DNA from: Bryobacterales bacterium
GTDB taxonomy: Bacteria > Acidobacteriota > Terriglobia > Bryobacterales > UBA6623
Assembly (NCBI GenBank): GCA_963667885.2
Contig: OY764148.2
Location: 988,221 to 1,012,220, forward strand
Direction of reading: 5' to 3'
Length of the DNA stretch: 24,000 nucleotides
How positions within the stretch are numbered: the stretch's first letter is position 1; each line of letters starts with the position of its first letter. Under the pieces are notes generated by a model. It had not been told where the DNA came from and did not search any database. It saw nothing but the letters and a program-made list of their open reading frames with translations. Position numbers and translations under genes: made by a program. Positions 1,067 through 13,186 of this stretch are shown piece after piece.

Positions 1067-3196
1067 TTGACCCGCCGCACTCTATCGTTTTTCGTTGCCA
1101 TAGCCATGAACGCTCTACCTCTCAGCGCCCAGGAGACCGCTATCTCCTACCCCGACACCAAGCGCATCGATCACGTTGACGACTACCACGGCACGGAGGT
1201 CGCCGACCCCTACCGTTGGCTGGAAGACGATGTCCGCGAATCGGAAGACGTAGCCTCCTGGGTTGAGCAGGAGAACGAAGCAACGTTCGCCTATCTGCAC
1301 GCGATCCCCGAGCGCGACCAGATCGAGAAACGCATCACCGAGCTTTGGAACTACGAACGCTACTCGACGTTCTTCAAGGAAGGCGGCCGCTACTACTTCT
1401 TCAAAAACGATGGGCTGCAGAACCAGAGCGTGCTCTACATGCAGGACTCGCTTGAGGATGAGCCCGAGATGCTGCTCAACCCAAACGTGTGGTCCGAAGA
1501 CGGGACGACCGCACTCTCAAGCATCGAGTTCAGCGAAGACGGCCGCTACGCAGCCTACTCACGCAGTGAAGGCGGATCCGACTGGCAGACCGTGCACGTC
1601 ATGGAGATCGAGTCGAAGAAGCTGCTCGACGACCAACTCGACTGGGTCAAGTTCAGTGCCTTGGTTTGGACCAAAGACGGCGAGGGTTTCTTCTACACTC
1701 GCTTCCCTCAACCGGAAGAGGGTGCGGAGTTCCAGTCCACCAATCTGCATAACAAGCTCTACTACCACCGCGTCGGCACGCCGCAGTCAGATGACGTTCT
1801 CGTCTACGAACGGCCTGAGGAACCCGAGTGGGGATTTTCACCCGACCTTTCTTCCGATGGACGGCACTTGGTGATCCACGTTTGGAAAGGCACCGACGCT
1901 CGCTACCGCGTCCTTCACAAGGACCTGGAAGAGCCTTACGGCGCTCCGGTCGAGCTGATCTCCAACTTCGACCAGGAGTACACCTTCATCGATGCCGAGG
2001 GCTCGAAGCTATACTTCCTCAGCGACTTGGATGCACCGCGTCGACGAGTGATCACATTCGACCTCGACCACCCCGATACGGCCCCGGTCGAGATCATCGC
2101 CGAGTCGGCAGACACACTCGTTGGCGTCACCTTGGTGGGTGACCTTCTCGTCGCGGACTACCTCAAAGACGCCCGCTCGTCGGTCCGCATCCATCGCCTC
2201 AACGGCGACTTCGTTCGCGAAGTCGAGTTACCCGGCATCGGTACCGCTGGCGGATTCTCAGGATCCCGTAGCGATCTCGAGACCTTCTACTCGTTCTCGG
2301 GATACGCAACACCTCCGACGATCTATCGCTACGACATGTTGACCGGCGAGAGCACACTGCTGAGGCAGGCCGCCGTCAACTTCGATTCCACTCAGTACGT
2401 CACCGAGCAGGTCTTCTACACGAGCAAAGACGGCACCCGAATTCCGATGTTTCTGACCCACCAGAAGGGGCTAGAGAAGAACGGCGCCAACCCAACGCTA
2501 CTCTACGGCTACGGCGGGTTCAACATCTCGATCACTCCCGCCTTCTCGGTCCGCTGGATGACTTGGCTGGACCTGGGCGGCCTGCTGGCAGTGCCCAACC
2601 TGCGCGGCGGTGGCGAGTACGGCGAAGATTGGCACCAGGCAGGAATCAAGCAAAGGAAGCAAAATGTCTTCGATGACTTTATCGCCGCCGCCGAGTGGCT
2701 GATCGAGAACGACTACACACGCACGGACAAGCTAGCCGTCCATGGACGCTCGAACGGTGGACTCCTCGTCGGTGCGGTAATGACCCAGCGACCGGAGCTA
2801 TTTGGCGCTGCCCTCCCCGGCGTGGGCGTCATGGACATGCTGCGCTTCCACCAGTTCACCGCGGGCCGCTATTGGGTCGACGACTACGGCTCAGCGGACA
2901 ATGCGGACGAGTTCCCGGCACTACTCGCCTACTCGCCCTATCACAACCTCGACAACCACTCCGACTACCCGCCGACCCTCATCACCACCGCCGACACCGA
3001 CGATCGTGTCGTACCGGGCCACAGCTTCAAGTTCGCCGCCGAACTGCAGCACAACCAGCAAGGCGCCGCACCGGTTTTGATCCGCATCGAGACCTCTGCA
3101 GGACATGGCGCAGGGCTCCCCACCTCGAAGCGCATCGAAGAGTTGGCCGATACCTGGGCGTTCTTGGTGAAGAGTCTGGGCATGGCGCTTGACTAG
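1067..3196 (+). CDS. Prolyl oligopeptidase (S9A family serine peptidase), secreted
   Basis: ORF is open from 977. TTG at 1067 follows GGGGAGG (1054-1060) and yields a signal-like N-terminus, LTRRTLSFFVAIAMNALPLSAQE. S9A hallmarks: DPYRWLEDD, nucleophile elbow GRSNGGLL, DDRV, SAGHGAG. The start codon is uncertain; ATG 1007 is the alternative. Confidence 0.9.
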   Translation: MTRRTLSFFVAIAMNALPLSAQETAISYPDTKRIDHVDDYHGTEVADPYRWLEDDVRESEDVASWVEQENEATFAYLHAIPERDQIEKRITELWNYERYSTFFKEGGRYYFFKNDGLQNQSVLYMQDSLEDEPEMLLNPNVWSEDGTTALSSIEFSEDGRYAAYSRSEGGSDWQTVHVMEIESKKLLDDQLDWVKFSALVWTKDGEGFFYTRFPQPEEGAEFQSTNLHNKLYYHRVGTPQSDDVLVYERPEEPEWGFSPDLSSDGRHLVIHVWKGTDARYRVLHKDLEEPYGAPVELISNFDQEYTFIDAEGSKLYFLSDLDAPRRRVITFDLDHPDTAPVEIIAESADTLVGVTLVGDLLVADYLKDARSSVRIHRLNGDFVREVELPGIGTAGGFSGSRSDLETFYSFSGYATPPTIYRYDMLTGESTLLRQAAVNFDSTQYVTEQVFYTSKDGTRIPMFLTHQKGLEKNGANPTLLYGYGGFNISITPAFSVRWMTWLDLGGLLAVPNLRGGGEYGEDWHQAGIKQRKQNVFDDFIAAAEWLIENDYTRTDKLAVHGRSNGGLLVGAVMTQRPELFGAALPGVGVMDMLRFHQFTAGRYWVDDYGSADNADEFPALLAYSPYHNLDNHSDYPPTLITTADTDDRVVPGHSFKFAAELQHNQQGAAPVLIRIETSAGHGAGLPTSKRIEELADTWAFLVKSLGMALD

Positions 3197-3257
3197 AGCC
3201 CCTCAGACAGCGCAGCTCAATTGAATTGAGTATCATACGGGCAAACCCAAATGGCGA

Positions 3258-4178
3258 ATGAAAGGCGAATCCATAATGCCCGATAGACCTAATGAACGAT
3301 CAGTGAGTCACGAGTTTGGTGGCGAATGGACCGAGCGGAAGCTGAACATCATTGAGAAGTACCTTAGCGCCTACACCACTGCTCTGAAGAACCAACCCTT
3401 CCGAAAAAGCTACATCGATGCATTCGCCGGAACAGGTTATCGATCAGAACCCAATAATACGCCTGAGGGGAAGGCGGATCGCCTCCTGCTGCCTGAGCTT
3501 GCCGAAGAGGAACCGCAGAAGGTGCTGGAAGGCTCCGTACGACGTGCGCGCCAGTTGAATCCGCCGTTTGACGACTACACGTTTATCGAGAAAAGCAAGA
3601 TCAAACACCGAGCGCTTCTAGGCATCAAGGAGGAGTTCCCCCATCTGGCGGCCAACATTGAGATCATCCAGGACGATGCCAACTCGGCTATCAAAAACCT
3701 GTGTTCGGAGGACTGGTCGGCAAGACGTGCTGTACTGTTCCTGGATCCCTACGGAATGCAGGTGGAGTGGAGCACTATAGAGGCCATTGCAAAGACAGCA
3801 GCGATAGACATGTGGCTGCTCTTTCCTCAGGGCATGGCGGTGAACAGGATGCTAGGGGCAGCGGACAGGTTTCCATCTTGGCGAGCCAGCGTAGACAGAT
3901 CGTTCGGTCCCGACGATTGGCGGGACGAATTGATGCCAGTGAGCGCCCAGCAGTCGCTGTTCGGAGGGGAGGAACTAAGGTCCAAGGTGGCCATCGAGCA
4001 GATTGGACAGTACTTCGTACGCAGGCTCAAGTCCGTGTTCCCGGCGGTCGCCCCTAATCCCGCCATCTTGGGCAACTCCACCTGTCCGCTTTATCTGCTC
4101 TGTTTTGCAGCAGGAAACGAGAGGGGTGGCAAGCTCGCCCTCCGGATCGCGAACTATATTCTGAGAGCAGAAGGCTAG
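3258..4178 (+). CDS. tcmP: Three-Cys-motif partner protein (TcmP-like); Rossmann amino-methyltransferase-like motifs
   Basis: 306-aa ORF with the N-terminal HEFGGEWTERKL typical of the TcmP family as I recall it. Ordered motifs: IDAFAGTG (res 53-60), FIEKS, IQDDAN, LFLDPYG (res 160-166). ATG 3276 is an alternative start. Stop TAG at 4176-4178 lies 3 nt before the next ATG. Confidence 0.75.
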   Translation: MKGESIMPDRPNERSVSHEFGGEWTERKLNIIEKYLSAYTTALKNQPFRKSYIDAFAGTGYRSEPNNTPEGKADRLLLPELAEEEPQKVLEGSVRRARQLNPPFDDYTFIEKSKIKHRALLGIKEEFPHLAANIEIIQDDANSAIKNLCSEDWSARRAVLFLDPYGMQVEWSTIEAIAKTAAIDMWLLFPQGMAVNRMLGAADRFPSWRASVDRSFGPDDWRDELMPVSAQQSLFGGEELRSKVAIEQIGQYFVRRLKSVFPAVAPNPAILGNSTCPLYLLCFAAGNERGGKLALRIANYILRAEG

Positions 4179-4181
4179 GAC

Positions 4182-4898
4182 ATGGCACAGAAGTCAGAGA
4201 TCGAATGGACTCAATCCACCTGGAACCCGGTTACAGGCTGTACCAAGGTGAGTGCAGGCTGCAAGAACTGCTATGCGGAGCGCATGGCTGAACGGCTCAA
4301 ATTGATGGGGCAACGCAACTATCGACGAGGCTTTCAGCTTACTCTACAGCCCCACATGCTCGAACTTCCACTTACGTGGAAGACTCCACAAACGATTTTC
4401 GTTAACTCCATGAGCGACCTCTTCCATGAAGACGTGCCTCTCAGTTACATCAACTCCGTCTTCGACGTGATGAGACGAGCTTCTTGGCACCACTTTCAGA
4501 TTTTGACCAAGAGATCGAAACGACTACGGCGCGTAGCTCCAAGCATCGATTGGCCAAGCAATGTTTGGATGGGAGTCAGCGTCGAGTCCGGGGACCACGT
4601 GAACCGGATTGACGATCTTCGCCGAACGGGAGCAGCCGTGAAGTTCCTCTCACTGGAGCCATTGCTGGGCCCCTTGCATGACTTGAATTTACGTGACATC
4701 GACTGGATTATTGTCGGCGGTGAGTCAGGCCCAAGAGCACGGCCGATTGATCCGGACTGGGTTATCGACCTCCGAGATCAGTGTCAGCAAGCGGAAGTGC
4801 CATTCTTCTTCAAGCAGTGGGGCGGCGTAAATAAGAAAAAGACTGGGAGACTCTTGGGGGGGCGGACCTGGGACGTGAACGACCGGTCTGATAGGTAA
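4182..4898 (+). CDS. Phage Gp37/Gp68-family protein (DUF5131), three-Cys motif
   Basis: 238 aa. WNPVTGC-x6-C-x2-CYA (Cys20/27/30, nt 4239-4271), then [55 protein letters not shown] sits 7 nt upstream of the ATG. The last five codons and the stop (GAC CGG TCT GAT AGG TAA) lie in the IS terminal repeat. Confidence 0.85.
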
Positions 4899-4926
4899 CA
4901 CTCTAAACCGGACGGATGGGTAACAG
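4881..4926. repeat. IS left terminal inverted repeat (two sub-repeats)
   Basis: GACCGGTCTGATAGGTAACAC (4881-4901), then TCTA, then AACCGGACGGATGGGTAACAG (4906-4926). Confidence 0.8.
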
Positions 4927-4937
4927 TATAGGCGGTG

Positions 4938-4965
4938 GTCAGTGGCCCCCGCGGGGGCCACTGAC
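4938..4965. repeat. Perfect 28-bp palindrome GTCAGTGGCCCCCGCGGGGGCCACTGAC
   Basis: Read directly from the sequence. It overlaps the transposase stop codon (4939-4941) inside the IS left end. No U-tract follows on either strand. Confidence 0.95.
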
Positions 4966-6132
4966 TGCCGAGCCGAGCGGCCACAGTACGCGGTTGGCGG
5001 CGTCGAACAAGGCGAGTTCCACCGGACCGAACCAGATCTGCCAAATGGCTTCGTCCACTTCGACTAGCCCGACCAACTCGCGAGCCAACGCTTCACTCAG
5101 GAAGTACTTCTCGCCGAGGAACTTGATGCGTCCGTCGTGGCGCACTCGTCGGCGCTCCCAGTGCCCCGGGTAATCCAGATCAGCAAGCTCGCTGGGATAG
5201 GCGCGTGTTGCTGGTGCATAGAACGCCGCCGGGGGCCGCTGTCTCAACGCTTCATGCGGACGTTCTTGGTTGTATTCATGACGAAAGAGGTCGAAGCGGC
5301 GCTGCTGTCGGCGACGATCGCCAGCCGGAGGTCTCACTGTCTCGGCTTTGAGCGTGCGGTGTAGCCGCTCGTGGCGACCGTTCTGCTGCGGCTTGCCCGG
5401 CTCGATGCGCTCCACCGCAATGCCCAGCTTCAGCCACCAGACGTTCAACCGGCTCAAGCGTCCGGTGCCGATGGAGGCGAACGGCGAACCGTTGTCTGAG
5501 CGTATCCTTCGTGGCAGCCCGCGCTCCAGAAACAACCGCTCCAAGCCTCGGCGGGCCTCGGCGTAGGATGTGCCCACGTGTGCGGTGCAGTTGAGCAGGA
5601 AACGACTATATCCGTCGACGACCGTTAGCGGATAACACAGCACGCCGTCGCCGGTGCGAAACTGCCCCTTGTAGTCGATCGTCCAGAGGTCGTTGGGCGC
5701 TTCGGGTTCGCGCAACGGACTGGGTGCCGCTTCGGCCAGTCGCCGCATCCGCTTGCGCCCGCGAACGAGTCCGGCTCGCTTCAGCGCGTCGCCGATCGTC
5801 GACGCCGCTGGCCAGCTTGTCTGTGACTCTTTCGACTCCAGCCAGGCCCTGAGCTTCTTCGGCCCCCAACTCGGATGCTGCCGACGCGCTTCTATCACTC
5901 GTCGCTCGACCGACTCGGGTATCCGACCGGGCTGACGGTGTGCCGCGTGCGAGCGGTCTTCCAGCTCTGGCCAACCGCCTTGACGGAAGCGTTCTAACCA
6001 CTTGTATCCGGTCCTGCGGCTGATCCCGTAGAGTCGACACAGCGCCGCCACGTTCGTCGCCGCCCCCGCTCGCAGCCAGTCTTCAATGAATCTCTTGCGT
6101 TCTTCCATCGGATAGGTCTCCTTCCATGGCAT
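4939..6132 (-). CDS. IS481-family transposase (HTH + DDE/rve integrase core)
   Basis: 397 aa. The N-terminal HTH region (MPWKETYPMEERKRFIEDW..LCRLYGISRRTGYKWLERF) and integrase core (WTIDYKGQF...SDNGSPF...ERLHRTLK) are typical of IS481-like transposases. Confidence 0.9.
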   Translation of the reverse strand: MPWKETYPMEERKRFIEDWLRAGAATNVAALCRLYGISRRTGYKWLERFRQGGWPELEDRSHAAHRQPGRIPESVERRVIEARRQHPSWGPKKLRAWLESKESQTSWPAASTIGDALKRAGLVRGRKRMRRLAEAAPSPLREPEAPNDLWTIDYKGQFRTGDGVLCYPLTVVDGYSRFLLNCTAHVGTSYAEARRGLERLFLERGLPRRIRSDNGSPFASIGTGRLSRLNVWWLKLGIAVERIEPGKPQQNGRHERLHRTLKAETVRPPAGDRRRQQRRFDLFRHEYNQERPHEALRQRPPAAFYAPATRAYPSELADLDYPGHWERRRVRHDGRIKFLGEKYFLSEALARELVGLVEVDEAIWQIWFGPVELALFDAANRVLWPLGSAVSGPRGGH

Positions 6133-6141
6133 CTCGCCATG

Positions 6142-6187
6142 GTGTTACCTATCCGCCCGGTCTAACCTGTTACCCTTCCGCCCGGTC
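6142..6187. repeat. IS right terminal inverted repeat (two sub-repeats)
   Basis: Plus strand reads GTGTTACCTATCCGCCCGGTC (6142-6162), TAAC, CTGTTACCCTTCCGCCCGGTC (6167-6187). Reverse complements are GACCGGGCGGATAGGTAACAC and GACCGGGCGGAAGGGTAACAG. The first matches 18/21 to the left outer unit by my recount of the printed strings (my working tally was 19/21), so confirm by alignment. Confidence 0.8.
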
Positions 6188-6255
6188 TGTACACAGACGA
6201 ATTGCCCACTTCTGAATTAGTTAGCGCGGGTCGATGACGCTCGACTGAGCCTACG

Positions 6256-9981: not shown

Positions 9982-10067
9982 GTGTTTGATGCTTGGAGTC
10001 CGCTAAAAGTTGCAAGATTACGTCCGATCGTGGCATGAGCCATCGCTCACTGAGCAGCCAAAGGCCT

Positions 10068-10073
10068 TATAAT
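10068..10073 (+). promoter_or_regulatory. Possible -10 box for modB (very short leader)
   Basis: Perfect TATAAT ending 11 nt before ATG 10085. The -35 at 17-nt spacing is poor (GCTCAC). If this box is used, the modB mRNA would be nearly leaderless. Confidence 0.3.
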
Positions 10074-10084
10074 CAGACTCTTAG

Positions 10085-10765
10085 ATGTTTCCCGACCTCC
10101 CTAGCATCGACTGGAGTCCGCTTTGGCTGAGCCTCCGCGTGGCCTCGATTGCTACGGTACTATCACTCGCGATTGGCCTGACTGCTGGCTGGGCCCTTAC
10201 CAGGTGGCAATTCCGAGGCAAGAATCTCGCCGAGGCGCTGATTACGGCGCCAATCGTGCTGCCGCCGACCGTGCTGGGCTACTACCTGCTCGTGGTACTG
10301 GGCCGTTCCAGCCCTCTCGGAGAGGCGTACGAGACTATCTTTGGTGGACCGTTGGTGTTTACCTGGCAAGCAGCCGTGGTGGCAGCTTCCCTGCATGCCA
10401 TCCCGCTGCTGATTCGCTCCGCGCGCGCCGCGTTTGAAGGGGTCAACCGCAACCTAGAGAACGCCGCTCGCAGCCTGGGCGCCAGCGAGTGGCGCGTCTT
10501 TTGGCGGGTGACGCTACCCTTGTCGAAAGGACCCGTCGTCGCTGCTGCCGTCTTCGCCTTTGCCCGTGCGCTGGGCGATTTTGGCGTCACGATCATGATC
10601 GCTGGCAATATTCCCGGAAAGACGCAGACGATGTCGGTCGCGATTTACGATGCCGTCCAATCAGGACAATCGCAACTCGCCACAGCGCTCGTTCTCGTCA
10701 TGTCCGCTCTCGCGATCACCGTGCTCTACGCCATCGGTCGAGCTGGAGGAGGCCGCATCCTGTGA
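10085..10765 (+). CDS. modB: Molybdate-type ABC transporter permease
   Basis: 226 aa. Multi-pass membrane protein with the ModB/CysT-type EAA loop region (NLENAARSLGASEWRVFWRVTLPL) and GDFGVTIMIAGNIPGKTQT. Confidence 0.85.
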   Translation: MFPDLPSIDWSPLWLSLRVASIATVLSLAIGLTAGWALTRWQFRGKNLAEALITAPIVLPPTVLGYYLLVVLGRSSPLGEAYETIFGGPLVFTWQAAVVAASLHAIPLLIRSARAAFEGVNRNLENAARSLGASEWRVFWRVTLPLSKGPVVAAAVFAFARALGDFGVTIMIAGNIPGKTQTMSVAIYDAVQSGQSQLATALVLVMSALAITVLYAIGRAGGGRIL

Positions 10766-11505
10766 CGAAATCACTCCATGCGAAGATCGAGAAGCGCTTC
10801 GCTGGCAGTCCGGGGTCGAAGCCGTTCGAACTCGACATTGAGTTCGTCGCCGCGGACGGCATCACCGTGCTGTTTGGCCCCAGCGGATCTGGCAAGACGC
10901 TCACGCTCGAGGCGTTGGCTGGTTTCTCTAAGCCCGACGCTGGTCAGATTCGATTCGGCGACCGCACACTCTTCGATTCCCAGACACGAGCCGATGTCCC
11001 CGCCCGCGACAGACGCTGCGGCTACCTCTTCCAACAAGACGCACTCTTCCCCCACATGACAGTACGCGAGAATGTCGCCTTCGGCGCGAACGCGGATGAA
11101 CGTCGCGTCGACGAGTTGCTTGCTGAGTTTCGCATCGAAGGGCTGGCCGCCCGGCGGCCGAGTGAGATTTCGGGCGGCGAGCGTCAACGTTGTGCCATCG
11201 CACGCACGCTTGCTGGCAATCCCGAGTTCCTGCTCATGGACGAACCCGCGCAAGGTCTCGACATCGTTCTACGGCGGGAGTTGCATGATGTCTTTAGGCG
11301 TATCCGCGATCAATTTGGTCTGCCGATGTTGCTCGTCACGCACGACATCTCCGAGGCTCTATCACTTGGCGATTCGCTGATGTTGTACTCGCACGGCAAG
11401 ATCGTGCAACACGGTCCAGCGCGGCAGACGTTTGAAAACCCGAATTCCACCGCGGCCGCAAGGTTGATGGGCGTCGAAAGCGTGTCGGCTGGCGACGACG
11501 ACTGA
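10762..11505 (+). CDS. modC: Molybdate-type ABC transporter ATP-binding protein (no C-terminal TOBE/Mop domain)
   Basis: GTG 10762 overlaps the modB stop (GTGA). Walker A GPSGSGKT, Q-loop LFQQDALFPH, signature ISGGERQR, Walker B FLLMDEP, H-loop LVTHD. The track ORF start at 10489 is a spurious upstream extension. Confidence 0.8.
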   Translation: MTKSLHAKIEKRFAGSPGSKPFELDIEFVAADGITVLFGPSGSGKTLTLEALAGFSKPDAGQIRFGDRTLFDSQTRADVPARDRRCGYLFQQDALFPHMTVRENVAFGANADERRVDELLAEFRIEGLAARRPSEISGGERQRCAIARTLAGNPEFLLMDEPAQGLDIVLRRELHDVFRRIRDQFGLPMLLVTHDISEALSLGDSLMLYSHGKIVQHGPARQTFENPNSTAAARLMGVESVSAGDDD

Positions 11506-11508
11506 CCC

Positions 11509-12123
11509 GTGCTGCTCTACTACATCACCGACCGCCACTCTCTCAATCGCGACCTGCTCGATGCGGTCGCCGAGGCGCTGATGGCCGGAGTGGATTTGAT
11601 CCAGATCCGCGAGAAGGACCTTTCACCTCGTGAGTTGTTTGTGCTCTCCCGGCGAGTAAAGGAACTCCCGAACCCCGTTGGCTCGCGCATCCTCCTCAAC
11701 GAGCGCTTAGACATCGCCTTGGCCGCGGGGTTAGACGGCGTCCATCTTCCCGCCTCCCACCTGCCGATTCGTGAGCTGCGCATCGCCGCCGGTCGGTCGA
11801 TCACCGTCGGCGTCTCGTGCCACTCCGAAGCAGAGGTTCGAGCCGCAAACGACGAGGAGGTGGATCTGATCGCCTTCTCACCCGTATTCGCCCCCCTCTC
11901 CAAGAGCAGCCAATTCCAACCCCACGGGCTAGTAGTTTTAGAGTCGATCTGCGCCACGTCTTCGACGCCGGTCTTCGCTCTGGGAGGAGTAACTGCAAAT
12001 CGCATCCACGACTGTCTTGAAGCAGGCGCCGCTGGCGTGGCTGGAATCTCCCTATTCCAGTCTTCGCGCGAGCTGACAACACTCGTCTCCAACCTAAGAG
12101 ACAAGCCCTTATCCTCCCCATAA
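11509..12123 (+). CDS. thiE: Thiamine-phosphate synthase (ThiE/TenI family)
   Basis: 204 aa with a GTG start 3 nt after the modC stop. LYYITDR...DLIQIREKDL...LNERLDIALAAGLDGVHL...FALGGV...GVAGISLF follows the ThiE TIM-barrel pattern. Confidence 0.75.
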   Translation: MLLYYITDRHSLNRDLLDAVAEALMAGVDLIQIREKDLSPRELFVLSRRVKELPNPVGSRILLNERLDIALAAGLDGVHLPASHLPIRELRIAAGRSITVGVSCHSEAEVRAANDEEVDLIAFSPVFAPLSKSSQFQPHGLVVLESICATSSTPVFALGGVTANRIHDCLEAGAAGVAGISLFQSSRELTTLVSNLRDKPLSSP

Positions 12124-12469
12124 AAATTATCTTCTTGCTGGCATCGAGAGGGTTTCGTAGAGTGGGTGCAAGAGGTCGCTGTGATCGACCTGGGGCCTGT
12201 TAAATAATCAGTTGGCGGTTGCGAGGGCAGCGCCAATAACAGTCTCGCTGTTCACATCATGATCGCCACTGGAGATCGCTCTCCAGGTGGCAAAAACGAT
12301 GCGTGACCTTCGTACAGGATAGCTGTGTTCGGAACCAAGAACGTGAATAGCGGAGCAATAGGCGGGCCTACAGCGAGCGGTCACAGGAAGCGGAATAGTC
12401 GGGGCGGGCTGTTCCATCTATCGACACGATATTTCAGTTAGAAGGCACTGTTTAGGAGATTGAAGAAAG

Positions 12470-13186
12470 ATGAAATCATTGCGAAAACTAATTCTGGGAA
12501 TCGTCGCCCTGGCCGCTTTCAGCTCGGCTAACGTCTTCGCCCAAGACGAAGTCAGCGTGTCGTTTGACTCCGGATTCGTCAACCAATACGTTTGGCGTGG
12601 GTTCGAGCTCAACGGCTCGGCCTCCTGGGAGCCCGGTGTGACCGTGGGTTACGGCGGCCTTTCCTTCTCTTCCTGGAACAACTTCTCTACCGTTGCCGGG
12701 AACAGCGGATCCTGGACCGAGCATGACTTCGCTGTGGACTACACCACTGACATCAGCGACAGCGGCTTCTCGGTTTCCGTTGGTTGGATCAACTACGCAT
12801 TCCCCAACCTCCCGAGGGGCGAAGATCGGTACACGAACGAACTCTACGTGGGTATAGGACACGACGACATCTTGGCACCGTCCTTCACGGTCTACGGCGA
12901 TGTCCACGCAGGAAAAGGGCTTTACTATCTGTTCGGAATCGCCCCATCAGTCGAGATCGCCAACGGAATTACTTTTGATCCCATCCTTAATGTTGGTATC
13001 AACCAGAACTTGTTTCGGGAAGGCACCGGTGTCAGCGACATCAATGTCGGCGCTGGCCTCACTTTCCCCTACAAGAATTTGACCTTCGCACCGTTCGGCA
13101 TGATGGTGATGTCACCGGGTGCCTTCGGCGACGAGTTCGGAAAATACAAGCCCGTCTACGGTGCCGTCGCTTCCTTCTCGTACTAA
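12470..13186 (+). CDS. Outer-membrane beta-barrel protein, Gcw_chp (TIGR02001)-like
   Basis: Signal peptide MKSLRKLILGIVALAAFSSANVFAQ. Alternating amphipathic beta-strand pattern (FVNQYVWRGFEL...GVTVGY...FAVDYT...VSVGWINYAF). Aromatic C-terminus ...SFSY. Confidence 0.7.
   Translation: MKSLRKLILGIVALAAFSSANVFAQDEVSVSFDSGFVNQYVWRGFELNGSASWEPGVTVGYGGLSFSSWNNFSTVAGNSGSWTEHDFAVDYTTDISDSGFSVSVGWINYAFPNLPRGEDRYTNELYVGIGHDDILAPSFTVYGDVHAGKGLYYLFGIAPSVEIANGITFDPILNVGINQNLFREGTGVSDINVGAGLTFPYKNLTFAPFGMMVMSPGAFGDEFGKYKPVYGAVASFSY

Follow-up and report, generated by a model that had tools for sequence, protein, structure and literature searches.

A conserved TcmP–DUF5131 gene pair, an instance of the defence candidate PDC-M41, in an accessory slot of a Bryobacterales genome

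What is the function of two adjacent genes, tcmP and a DUF5131 gene, that recur side by side in distant bacteria and are found here wedged between housekeeping genes? TcmP–DUF5131 is among the larger conserved gene pairs without known chemistry (TcmP comprises ~4,700 clusters), and we met it in a stretch of 24,000 nt from a Bryobacterales bacterium (assembly GCA_963667885.2, contig OY764148.2, forward-strand positions 988,221 to 1,012,220), which is referred to as the window throughout. In the window, tcmP (ORF1) is followed by ORF2, which encodes a three-Cys protein of the DUF5131 (Gp37/Gp68) family. Our tentative reading, held at a little under an even chance, is that the pair constitutes a two-subunit enzyme using S-adenosylmethionine (SAM) that would modify a nucleic-acid base, most likely in DNA, in the conflict with phages and mobile elements. 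The window locus itself is an ordinary, intact-looking and slightly C-terminally truncated instance of its family.

Both family assignments made in an initial annotation of the window were borne out by profile searches. ORF1 matches TIGR04474 (TcmP, three-Cys-motif partner protein) with 185.7 bits against a curated cutoff of 53 (E 1.5e-54, model positions 1-260 of 263), and it also carries the second mark of TcmP proteins, being encoded beside a three-Cys-motif protein (DUF5131, 3 nt away); no Pfam family was found for it. ORF2 matches PF07505 (DUF5131) with 341.5 bits against a gathering threshold of 28.9 (E 3.5e-102, model positions 1-240 of 243) and, in addition, phrog_2045. Its match to TIGR04471, 'radical SAM mobile pair protein A', reaches 87.1 bits (E 1.2e-24) and misses the equivalog cutoff of 355; by this score ORF2 is a homologue of that family and not a member. 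Among the PADLOC profiles, the adjacent plus-strand genes match PDC-M41 near end to end (ORF1 as component A, 5.9e-109; ORF2 as component B, 5.7e-119), while for PDC-M30 the match of ORF2 to PDC-M30B is strong (5.8e-114) and that of ORF1 to PDC-M30A is weak (1.2e-06). Judged by these profiles, the cassette is an instance of the PADLOC candidate system PDC-M41, of the M41 and not the M30 type. It is therefore an already catalogued computational defence candidate and not a new kind of system.

The tie between the two genes proved to be strict. TcmP was searched for in GTDB, each species being represented by a single genome, and of the 523 close relatives obtained 80 loci were analysed, with their neighbours clustered and annotated and all counts given raw. 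A DUF5131 gene adjoins tcmP in every one of the 80 loci, as had been expected if the two families co-occur, and in about 75 of them it follows tcmP in the same orientation, the aligned segments being 0-27 nt apart; the gene order is reversed in three loci, and DUF5131 is degraded in two (truncated in L054 and L064). These loci span Myxococcota, Nitrospirota, Acidobacteriota, Planctomycetota, Gemmatimonadota, Binatia, Gammaproteobacteria and others. A TcmP profile search of 1.84 billion representatives gave 4,704 clusters (50% identity clusters, E <=1e-3), typically of stand-alone proteins of 285-310 residues, and DUF5131 proteins number at least 8,000. The mean identity across the same loci is 71% for DUF5131 vs 52% for TcmP, a contrast that would fit a conserved catalytic subunit joined to a diversifying specificity or target subunit. 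A TcmP–DUF5131 fusion was also sought as evidence of interaction, and none was present among the best 150 of the 4,704 representatives. The top TcmP-profile representative (P0361, 552 residues) shows four matched stretches and looks like tandem or fused TcmP units.

The neighbourhoods of the pair indicate with which processes it is associated. Among the neighbours in the 80 loci, genes for Mod (PADLOC MTase_III, 1.7e-191) and Res (REase_III, 8.6e-301) of Type III systems recur most often, and in seven loci (L009, L014, L019, L027, L044, L059 and L069) the genes run mod-tcmP-DUF5131-res on one strand, the pair lying at ~10001-11600 in most of them. The nested loci belong to Binatia, Gemmatimonadales, Nitrospirales/Nitrospira, Planctomycetaceae and Phycisphaera; an SNF2/DrmD-like helicase gene is often found upstream of the block, and L069 has a Schlafen/AlbA_2-domain gene interposed ahead of res. 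Two further loci (L002 and L037) have mod-res adjacent or nearby, and L018 retains Mod/SNF2 remnants. Since Res is 76-83% identical across the phyla of the nested loci, the mod-pair-res block moves horizontally as a unit. In the census of restriction-modification genes, which was BLAST-based and covered 10 kb, Type III Mod occurs in 11 of the 80 loci and Type IIG/ISP systems occur in eight. Membership in DISARM was considered as well, as some neighbours match DrmD/DrmA profiles, and was rejected, these neighbours resolving to Type III Mod, Res and a generic SNF2 helicase.

Other defence genes and phages add to this picture. On plasmid pC052_C of Nostoc sp. C052 (L091, 1-11575), a TcmP 49% identical to that of the window is encoded divergently from a PA0069/Rv2578c-like (SplB-type) radical SAM protein instead of DUF5131, and this pair stands directly beside BREX-1 (pglZ, brxL, brxA) and a CHAT-TPR protein gene. 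On pSymA of S. meliloti (L090, 4343-10004), the TcmP gene SMa2243 lies 79 nt beyond hna and converges on a second TcmP of 414 residues together with DUF5131, so that the hna side holds two TcmP paralogues and one DUF5131 in total. The gene hna encodes a validated defence helicase, and SMa2243 rises with hna in a nolR+ strain (PMC12445080). DUF5131 is further encoded in 180 phage records. Gordonia phage Jablanski has its DUF5131 gene placed between the genes for integrase/RelBE and that for the immunity repressor, convergent with gp43, whose product, annotated 'methyltransferase', is a true TcmP (TIGR04474, 1.2e-33), and a genuine PDC-M41 pair occurs in a Synechococcus phage. In many mycobacteriophages the DUF5131 gene stands alone, with no detectable TcmP, in early replication/recombination modules near large DNA methyltransferase genes (for example L094, prophiT36-2a, 1805-4406, and L095, phage TChen, 3501-7088), with RecE/RecT and RuvC-like genes among its neighbours. 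One such solo mycobacteriophage gene is annotated 'RNA methyltransferase'. The family is thus associated with restriction-modification genes, other defence genes and phage DNA-metabolism genes.

The chromosomal slot of the window pair has the same accessory character. It extends over window positions 3197-6255, with polA, OsmC and the prolyl oligopeptidase S9 gene pop on one side and hspR (MerR)-dnaJ-dnaK on the other; in the window, an IS481-family transposase gene comes between the pair and hspR. Three relatives with a pop 95-96% identical to that of the window (L084-L086) have the same flanks with other, defence-like cargo in the slot (~10190-12900), namely a protein of 617 or 473 residues with a PtuA-like ATPase N-terminus in L084/L085 and an ankyrin/PDC-M72A-like protein in L086, and TcmP–DUF5131 occupies the same slot in an 80%-identical relative (L087, 4783-6460) and in contigs L092 and L093. 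Since the same flanks enclose different cargo among relatives, the pop|hspR slot is a cargo-exchange hotspot, and the accessory location that had been claimed for the pair, between pop and the dnaK operon, holds up. Neither an integrase nor a tRNA gene was seen at the site. Within the slot, the identity to the window proteins is 93% for DUF5131 and 61% for TcmP in L092, 85% and 77% in L093, and 85% and 64% in L087, and this fast divergence in one and the same place suggests that TcmP is under diversifying selection or that its alleles are swapped.

We then asked what the two proteins themselves reveal. The motifs quoted for both ORFs in the initial annotation, Cys20/27/30 of ORF2 included, are all located at the residues given, those of ORF1 being IDAFAGTG (53-60), FIEKS (109-113), IQDDAN (137-142) and LFLDPYG (160-166). 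In an alignment of 62 sequences, D54-A-F-A-G-T-G60 is invariant or nearly so, E111 is nearly invariant and D163-P-Y-G166 is invariant; conservation peaks at FLDPYGMQVE (motif IV, 0.98) and YIDAFAGTG (motif I, 0.92), and loop 61-80 varies most. The AlphaFold2 model of TcmP (mean predicted local distance difference test score, pLDDT, 79.5; predicted template modelling score 0.80) contains a disordered variable loop at 57-89. Its leading Foldseek matches in the PDB are DUF519 (2oo3), Trm1, TYW4 and E. coli RlmJ, at E ~5e-6 to 4e-5 and template modelling scores (TM-scores) of 0.35-0.48. Fold matches at E <=1e-3 number 56, nearly all of the 50 listed having a SAM methyltransferase fold, and a viral structure library agrees in leading from the TcmP model to SAM methyltransferases. 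TcmP is hence predicted to adopt a class I SAM-methyltransferase fold, and the amino-methyltransferase-type fold read from the motifs by eye found support in the model and in the invariance of motifs I and IV. A weak hhalign alignment with E. coli RlmJ (E 0.019) places YIDAFAGTGYR on YLDTHAGAGRY and VLFLDPYGM on LILIDPPYEM, and a relaxed Pfam scan of the 62 TcmPs gave a best E of 0.017, with TRM as the best methyltransferase family (0.059) and RsmD-like families faint. As modelled, TcmP resembles the RlmJ/Trm1-type amino-methyltransferases yet lies outside both families.

For the partner protein, Cys20/27/30 (C-x6-C-x2-C) are invariant in 46 DUF5131 homologues, and the FKQWGG block is present in ORF2. 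DUF5131 is listed as radical SAM subgroup Megacluster-5-2 in RadicalSAM.org/SFLD, spore photoproduct lyase (SPL; 5-3) and the MJ0683-like proteins (5-1) being placed in the same megacluster (PMC9477430), and SplB-like COG1533 genes are SOS-regulated (PMC8565304). This classification, the homology to TIGR04471 below its cutoff and the three invariant cysteines are the grounds for regarding DUF5131 as a putative radical SAM protein. The model of ORF2 has alternating beta/alpha elements (pLDDT 75.6), and its fold matches include designed TIM barrels and the Zn(Cys)3 TIM barrels of methionine synthase, SPL being the only natural radical SAM enzyme among them (E 0.013-0.09, weak). Structural support for assigning DUF5131 to the SPL branch of radical SAM enzymes is weak, and no solved structure of the family was found by sequence and profile search of PDB chains.

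Taken together, these results led us to the following proposal. TcmP would be the target-recognising, base-flipping subunit, with an intact SAM site at DAFAGTG and a base-binding DPYG, and might also be the methyl donor, while the C-x6-C-x2-C motif of DUF5131 would hold a [4Fe-4S] cluster and carry out radical chemistry on the base that TcmP presents, the two proteins acting as a physical complex on DNA. The resulting mark would serve as the 'M' of a restriction-modification-like system, allowing self/non-self discrimination, and could work together with restriction partners, as within the Type III mod/res operons, or alone, as an orphan module like that in the window. A function on nucleic acid or in defence had also been suggested in the initial annotation, and we, too, infer it from context. 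Those parts of the earlier interpretation that could be checked by computation all held up, and none of the outcomes named there as refuting it was seen.

A number of observations speak against this proposal. No effector is obvious in the pair, and about three quarters of the 80 loci show no restriction-modification gene within 10 kb in the BLAST-based census. Motif IV of TcmP is DPYG and not DPPY, one proline fewer, no significant match of the TcmP profile or sequence was found against PDB chains and Pfam, and the nearest structural relatives of the protein are RNA and not DNA methyltransferases. As to ORF2, the spacing of its cysteines differs from the canonical radical SAM motif C-x3-C-x2-C, the model drops to pLDDT <50 at residues 23-33, which form the Cys loop, and its Foldseek matches are weak (E 1e-3 or worse, TM-scores 0.3-0.4). 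The C-terminus of ORF2 is altered by an insertion sequence (IS), and the window copy may be impaired. Finally, PDC-M41 is a computational candidate only. No functional work on DUF5131, TcmP, PDC-M41 or PDC-M30 came to light in literature searches, and those on Gp37Gp68, SplB/COG1533 and radical SAM plus defence likewise yielded none on the pair; what they returned were the radical SAM subgroup entry for DUF5131, entries for TcmP in annotation tables and prevalence counts of PDC-M30. The description of the cassette as uncharacterised thus stands as far as functional work is concerned, but not as regards its cataloguing, since it is already contained in PADLOC as PDC-M41/M30.

A more specific form of the proposal, which we regard as possible but doubtful, is that the pair installs a new, radical-SAM-dependent DNA base modification as a self-mark. 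It would then be a second modification arm of a Type III-like system in the mod-tcmP-DUF5131-res loci, and the orphan pair would by itself protect DNA or exclude invaders. Should the pair make a new modification of nucleic acid, this would mean new enzymology, with a methyltransferase-fold subunit working together with an SPL-like radical SAM subunit, and could bring a new epigenetic mark of relevance to phage defence, counter-defence and the sequencing-based detection of modifications.

Might the substrate be RNA instead? TcmP would then methylate, and DUF5131 radical-modify, a tRNA or rRNA base, with an effect on the translation of the host or the phage. Many characterised radical SAM enzymes of nucleic acids work on RNA. 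The closest structural relatives of TcmP, namely RlmJ (23S m6A2030), Trm1 (tRNA m2,2G) and TYW4, point in this direction, as do the faint matches of two TcmP family members to Pfam TRM (E 0.059). However, the pair is distributed sporadically, as an accessory element, it occurs nested in DNA-directed Type III mod/res operons and beside phage DNA methyltransferases, and the radical SAM families that partner TcmP fall into the SPL/SplB branch, the sole characterised member of which acts on DNA and relatives of which are SOS-regulated. We consider an RNA-modifying pair unlikely.

Two further explanations appear to us somewhat less probable again, and about equally so. The first is an antiviral small-molecule synthase comparable to viperin, in which DUF5131 would convert a free nucleotide and TcmP would tailor the product, which in turn blocks phage replication. 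Radical SAM antiviral enzymes have precedent, a product-based mechanism would suit two genes that come without a nuclease or other effector, and the pair is associated with defence islands. Yet the H-x-F-G-G...K element and the DPYG of TcmP are typical of polynucleotide amino-methyltransferases, similarity to viperin was not found in any search made, and the presence of DUF5131 in phages themselves would be odd for a chain-terminator synthase. The second is DNA repair in the manner of SPL, whereby DUF5131 would undo damage or a hostile modification, TcmP recognising the lesion, with no part in immunity as such. SPL is indeed the best natural fold match of DUF5131 and shares its megacluster, the SplB-like COG1533 genes are under SOS control, and solo phage DUF5131 genes keep the company of recombination genes. 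On the other hand, the invariant SAM-binding motif I argues that TcmP is a second SAM-using catalytic site and not a passive reader, and the hotspot, the restriction-modification contexts and the rapid divergence of TcmP resemble conflict systems.

It is more doubtful still that the three cysteines of DUF5131 coordinate zinc or play a structural part. Under this reading DUF5131 would fall outside the radical SAM enzymes, and the function of the pair would be conventional methyl transfer from SAM or nucleic-acid binding alone. The non-canonical Cys spacing, the NCBI name of the partner family ('three-Cys-motif', not radical SAM), the low model confidence at the Cys site and the weak fold matches to Zn(Cys)3 methionine synthase barrels are in keeping with this idea. 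It is countered by the placement of DUF5131 in the radical SAM superfamily by SFLD/RadicalSAM.org, by the homology of ORF2 to a family named radical SAM (TIGR04471, 1.2e-24), and by the pairing of TcmP elsewhere with canonical PA0069/Rv2578c-like radical SAM proteins.

Returning to the window copy of the candidate base-modifying pair, the features of the locus are compiled in Table 1, and the insertion at its 3' side could be reconstructed exactly. The transposase matches NF033577 (transpos_IS481) with 225.7 bits against a cutoff of 224 and contains rve, HTH and LZ_Tnp_IS481 domains. The element is bounded by imperfect inverted repeats of ~45 nt that are 78% complementary (4881-4925 and 6143-6187). 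Each of them holds two copies of a sub-repeat (GGTAACA ... CCGG-N-CGG), and because the sub-repeat is doubled within each inverted repeat, the repeat search reported several overlapping arm pairings. A precise empty site was obtained by comparing window 4872-6237 with L092 1015-1428. Accordingly, the claim that the IS end supplies the last codons of ORF2 turned out to be exact, while that of an 'IS-flanked' slot was right only insofar as an IS abuts the cassette, which it does on one side. The native ORF2 would encode 243 residues ending WDELPTSELVSAGR, as opposed to the 238 residues of the IS allele, which end in VNDRSDR followed by a stop codon from the IS, and the insertion removes the last 12 native codons, the nearly invariant E-[ML]-P after WD among them. 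ORF2 departs from its homologues after W230-D231, and the tail past P234 varies in length and sequence among the homologues. In sequence the displaced 3' end equals that of the L092 homologue, and 18 nt separate it from the stop codon of hspR.

Table 1. Coordinates of the tcmP–DUF5131 cassette and adjoining features in the window
Feature	Position	Strand	Remarks
Palindrome CTCAATT-G-AATTGAG	3216-3230	+	perfect 7+7, AT-rich; pop-tcmP intergenic leader; read from the sequence
tcmP (ORF1)	3276-4178	+	300 aa from ATG 3276; longest ORF 3258-4178, 306 aa
Shine-Dalgarno-like GAAGG	4170-4174	+	within the tcmP 3' end, 7 nt ahead of the ORF2 ATG
ORF2, DUF5131 (Gp37/Gp68) three-Cys protein	4182-4898	+	238 aa; codons 1-231 (4182-4874) native
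Target duplication GACG, left copy	4872-4875		junctions aligned with uninterrupted L092/L093
IS481-family insertion sequence, 1320 bp	4876-6195	-	transposase ORF 4939-6132(-); empty site L092
Target duplication GACG, right copy	6196-6199		junctions aligned with uninterrupted L092/L093
Displaced native DUF5131 3' end	6200-6237	+	codons ..LPTSELVSAGR + stop TGA

That the window copy is a decaying relic, rendered non-functional in this genome by the loss of its native C-terminus, is improbable in our view: the replaced 12 codons do include the nearly invariant E-[ML]-P, and decay is seen elsewhere (the truncated DUF5131 genes of L054 and L064, the Mod/SNF2 remnants of L018), but both ORFs are otherwise intact with every invariant residue kept, the ORF2 tail after P234 is naturally variable, the IS lies downstream so that expression of the pair should be untouched, and the perfect 4-bp duplication and the L092-identical displaced end suggest that the insertion is recent.

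The coupling of the genes, the ORF coordinates and the GAAGG spacing given in the initial annotation were confirmed from the sequence: the stop codon of tcmP is TAG 4176-4178, and the ATG of ORF2 begins 3 nt later at 4182. The position of GAAGG inside the end of tcmP suggests translational coupling of tcmP and the DUF5131 gene. For ORF1, the reported frame 3258-4178 on the plus strand is indeed open, whereas its start is more likely ATG 3276, which gives 300 residues, because the database protein P0001 (300 residues), a copy of ORF1, and the homologues begin at that ATG, among them that of L087, which aligns there. The palindrome upstream of the gene is partly kept ahead of the tcmP homologue of L087 and could be an operator or a piece of the pop terminator. 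The RNA fold of 3197-3280 was no better than that of shuffled sequences (z -1.0), a sigma-70 consensus promoter was searched for and not found, and no Rfam family or tRNA was found within the window.

The base composition of the cassette also agrees with its accessory nature as described earlier, the pair being more AT-rich than its flanks, albeit modestly. The GC content of both genes together is 0.549 vs 0.593 for the remaining window (standard deviation 0.017), and not one of 356 windows of the same size reaches a value this low, the cassette being the lowest-GC 1.6-kb stretch of the window. GC at third codon positions is lower as well, at 0.63-0.66 for tcmP and the DUF5131 gene vs 0.64-0.78 for the other genes of the window. 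A second low-GC patch (0.52-0.55) is located around 12000-12750. An ORF of 238 residues in this patch (12470-13186, plus strand), which is without a Pfam entry in the annotation of the source contig, matches no PDB chain by sequence and lies upstream of a gene for a Ser/Thr kinase of 909 residues with PD40/Tricorn repeats, may be a further accessory gene.

What this analysis adds to the initial annotation is the nesting of the pair in Type III operons and the other defence and phage contexts. Experimental handles on the pair are offered by the Type III mod/res nesting, by the hotspot with its exchangeable cargo, and by the paired as opposed to the solo phage versions.

How does the pair compare with known systems? 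With PDC-M41 the window cassette shows no structural difference, protection against phage being only a predicted role of that system. In the TIGR04474 family, TcmP proteins stand next to three-Cys partners (PF07505, or the 'radical SAM mobile pair' proteins A/B, TIGR04471/TIGR04470), and the window pair is likewise a TcmP with a three-Cys neighbour; its partner is DUF5131 and not TIGR04471, whereas other TcmPs, such as that of the Nostoc plasmid, take PA0069/Rv2578c-like radical SAM partners. RlmJ/DUF519 and Trm1 are among the best structural matches of TcmP, motifs I and IV fall into register in the weak alignment with RlmJ, and the N-terminal H..F..G...K element of TcmP is RlmJ-like. RlmJ, the 23S rRNA m6A2030 methyltransferase, is a stand-alone housekeeping RNA enzyme, in contrast to the accessory and always partnered TcmP, which has a variable loop of 30 residues after motif I and whose sequence relationship with RlmJ is not significant. 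SPL belongs to the same megacluster as DUF5131 and acts on DNA, but it has ~340 residues and a C-x3-C-x2-C motif and works alone on a UV lesion, compared with ~240 residues and C-x6-C-x2-C in DUF5131, and the similarity between the two is weak (E 0.013 or worse). Dnd/Ssp phosphorothioation, Dpd 7-deazaguanine modification and Type III restriction-modification are built of proteins unrelated to TcmP and DUF5131, which makes the likeness a functional analogy only, modification by the pair being predicted. Like the TcmP–DUF5131 pair, these DNA-modification defence modules are found as orphans or coupled to restriction, and the sporadic, horizontally moving distribution of the pair is the same as theirs.

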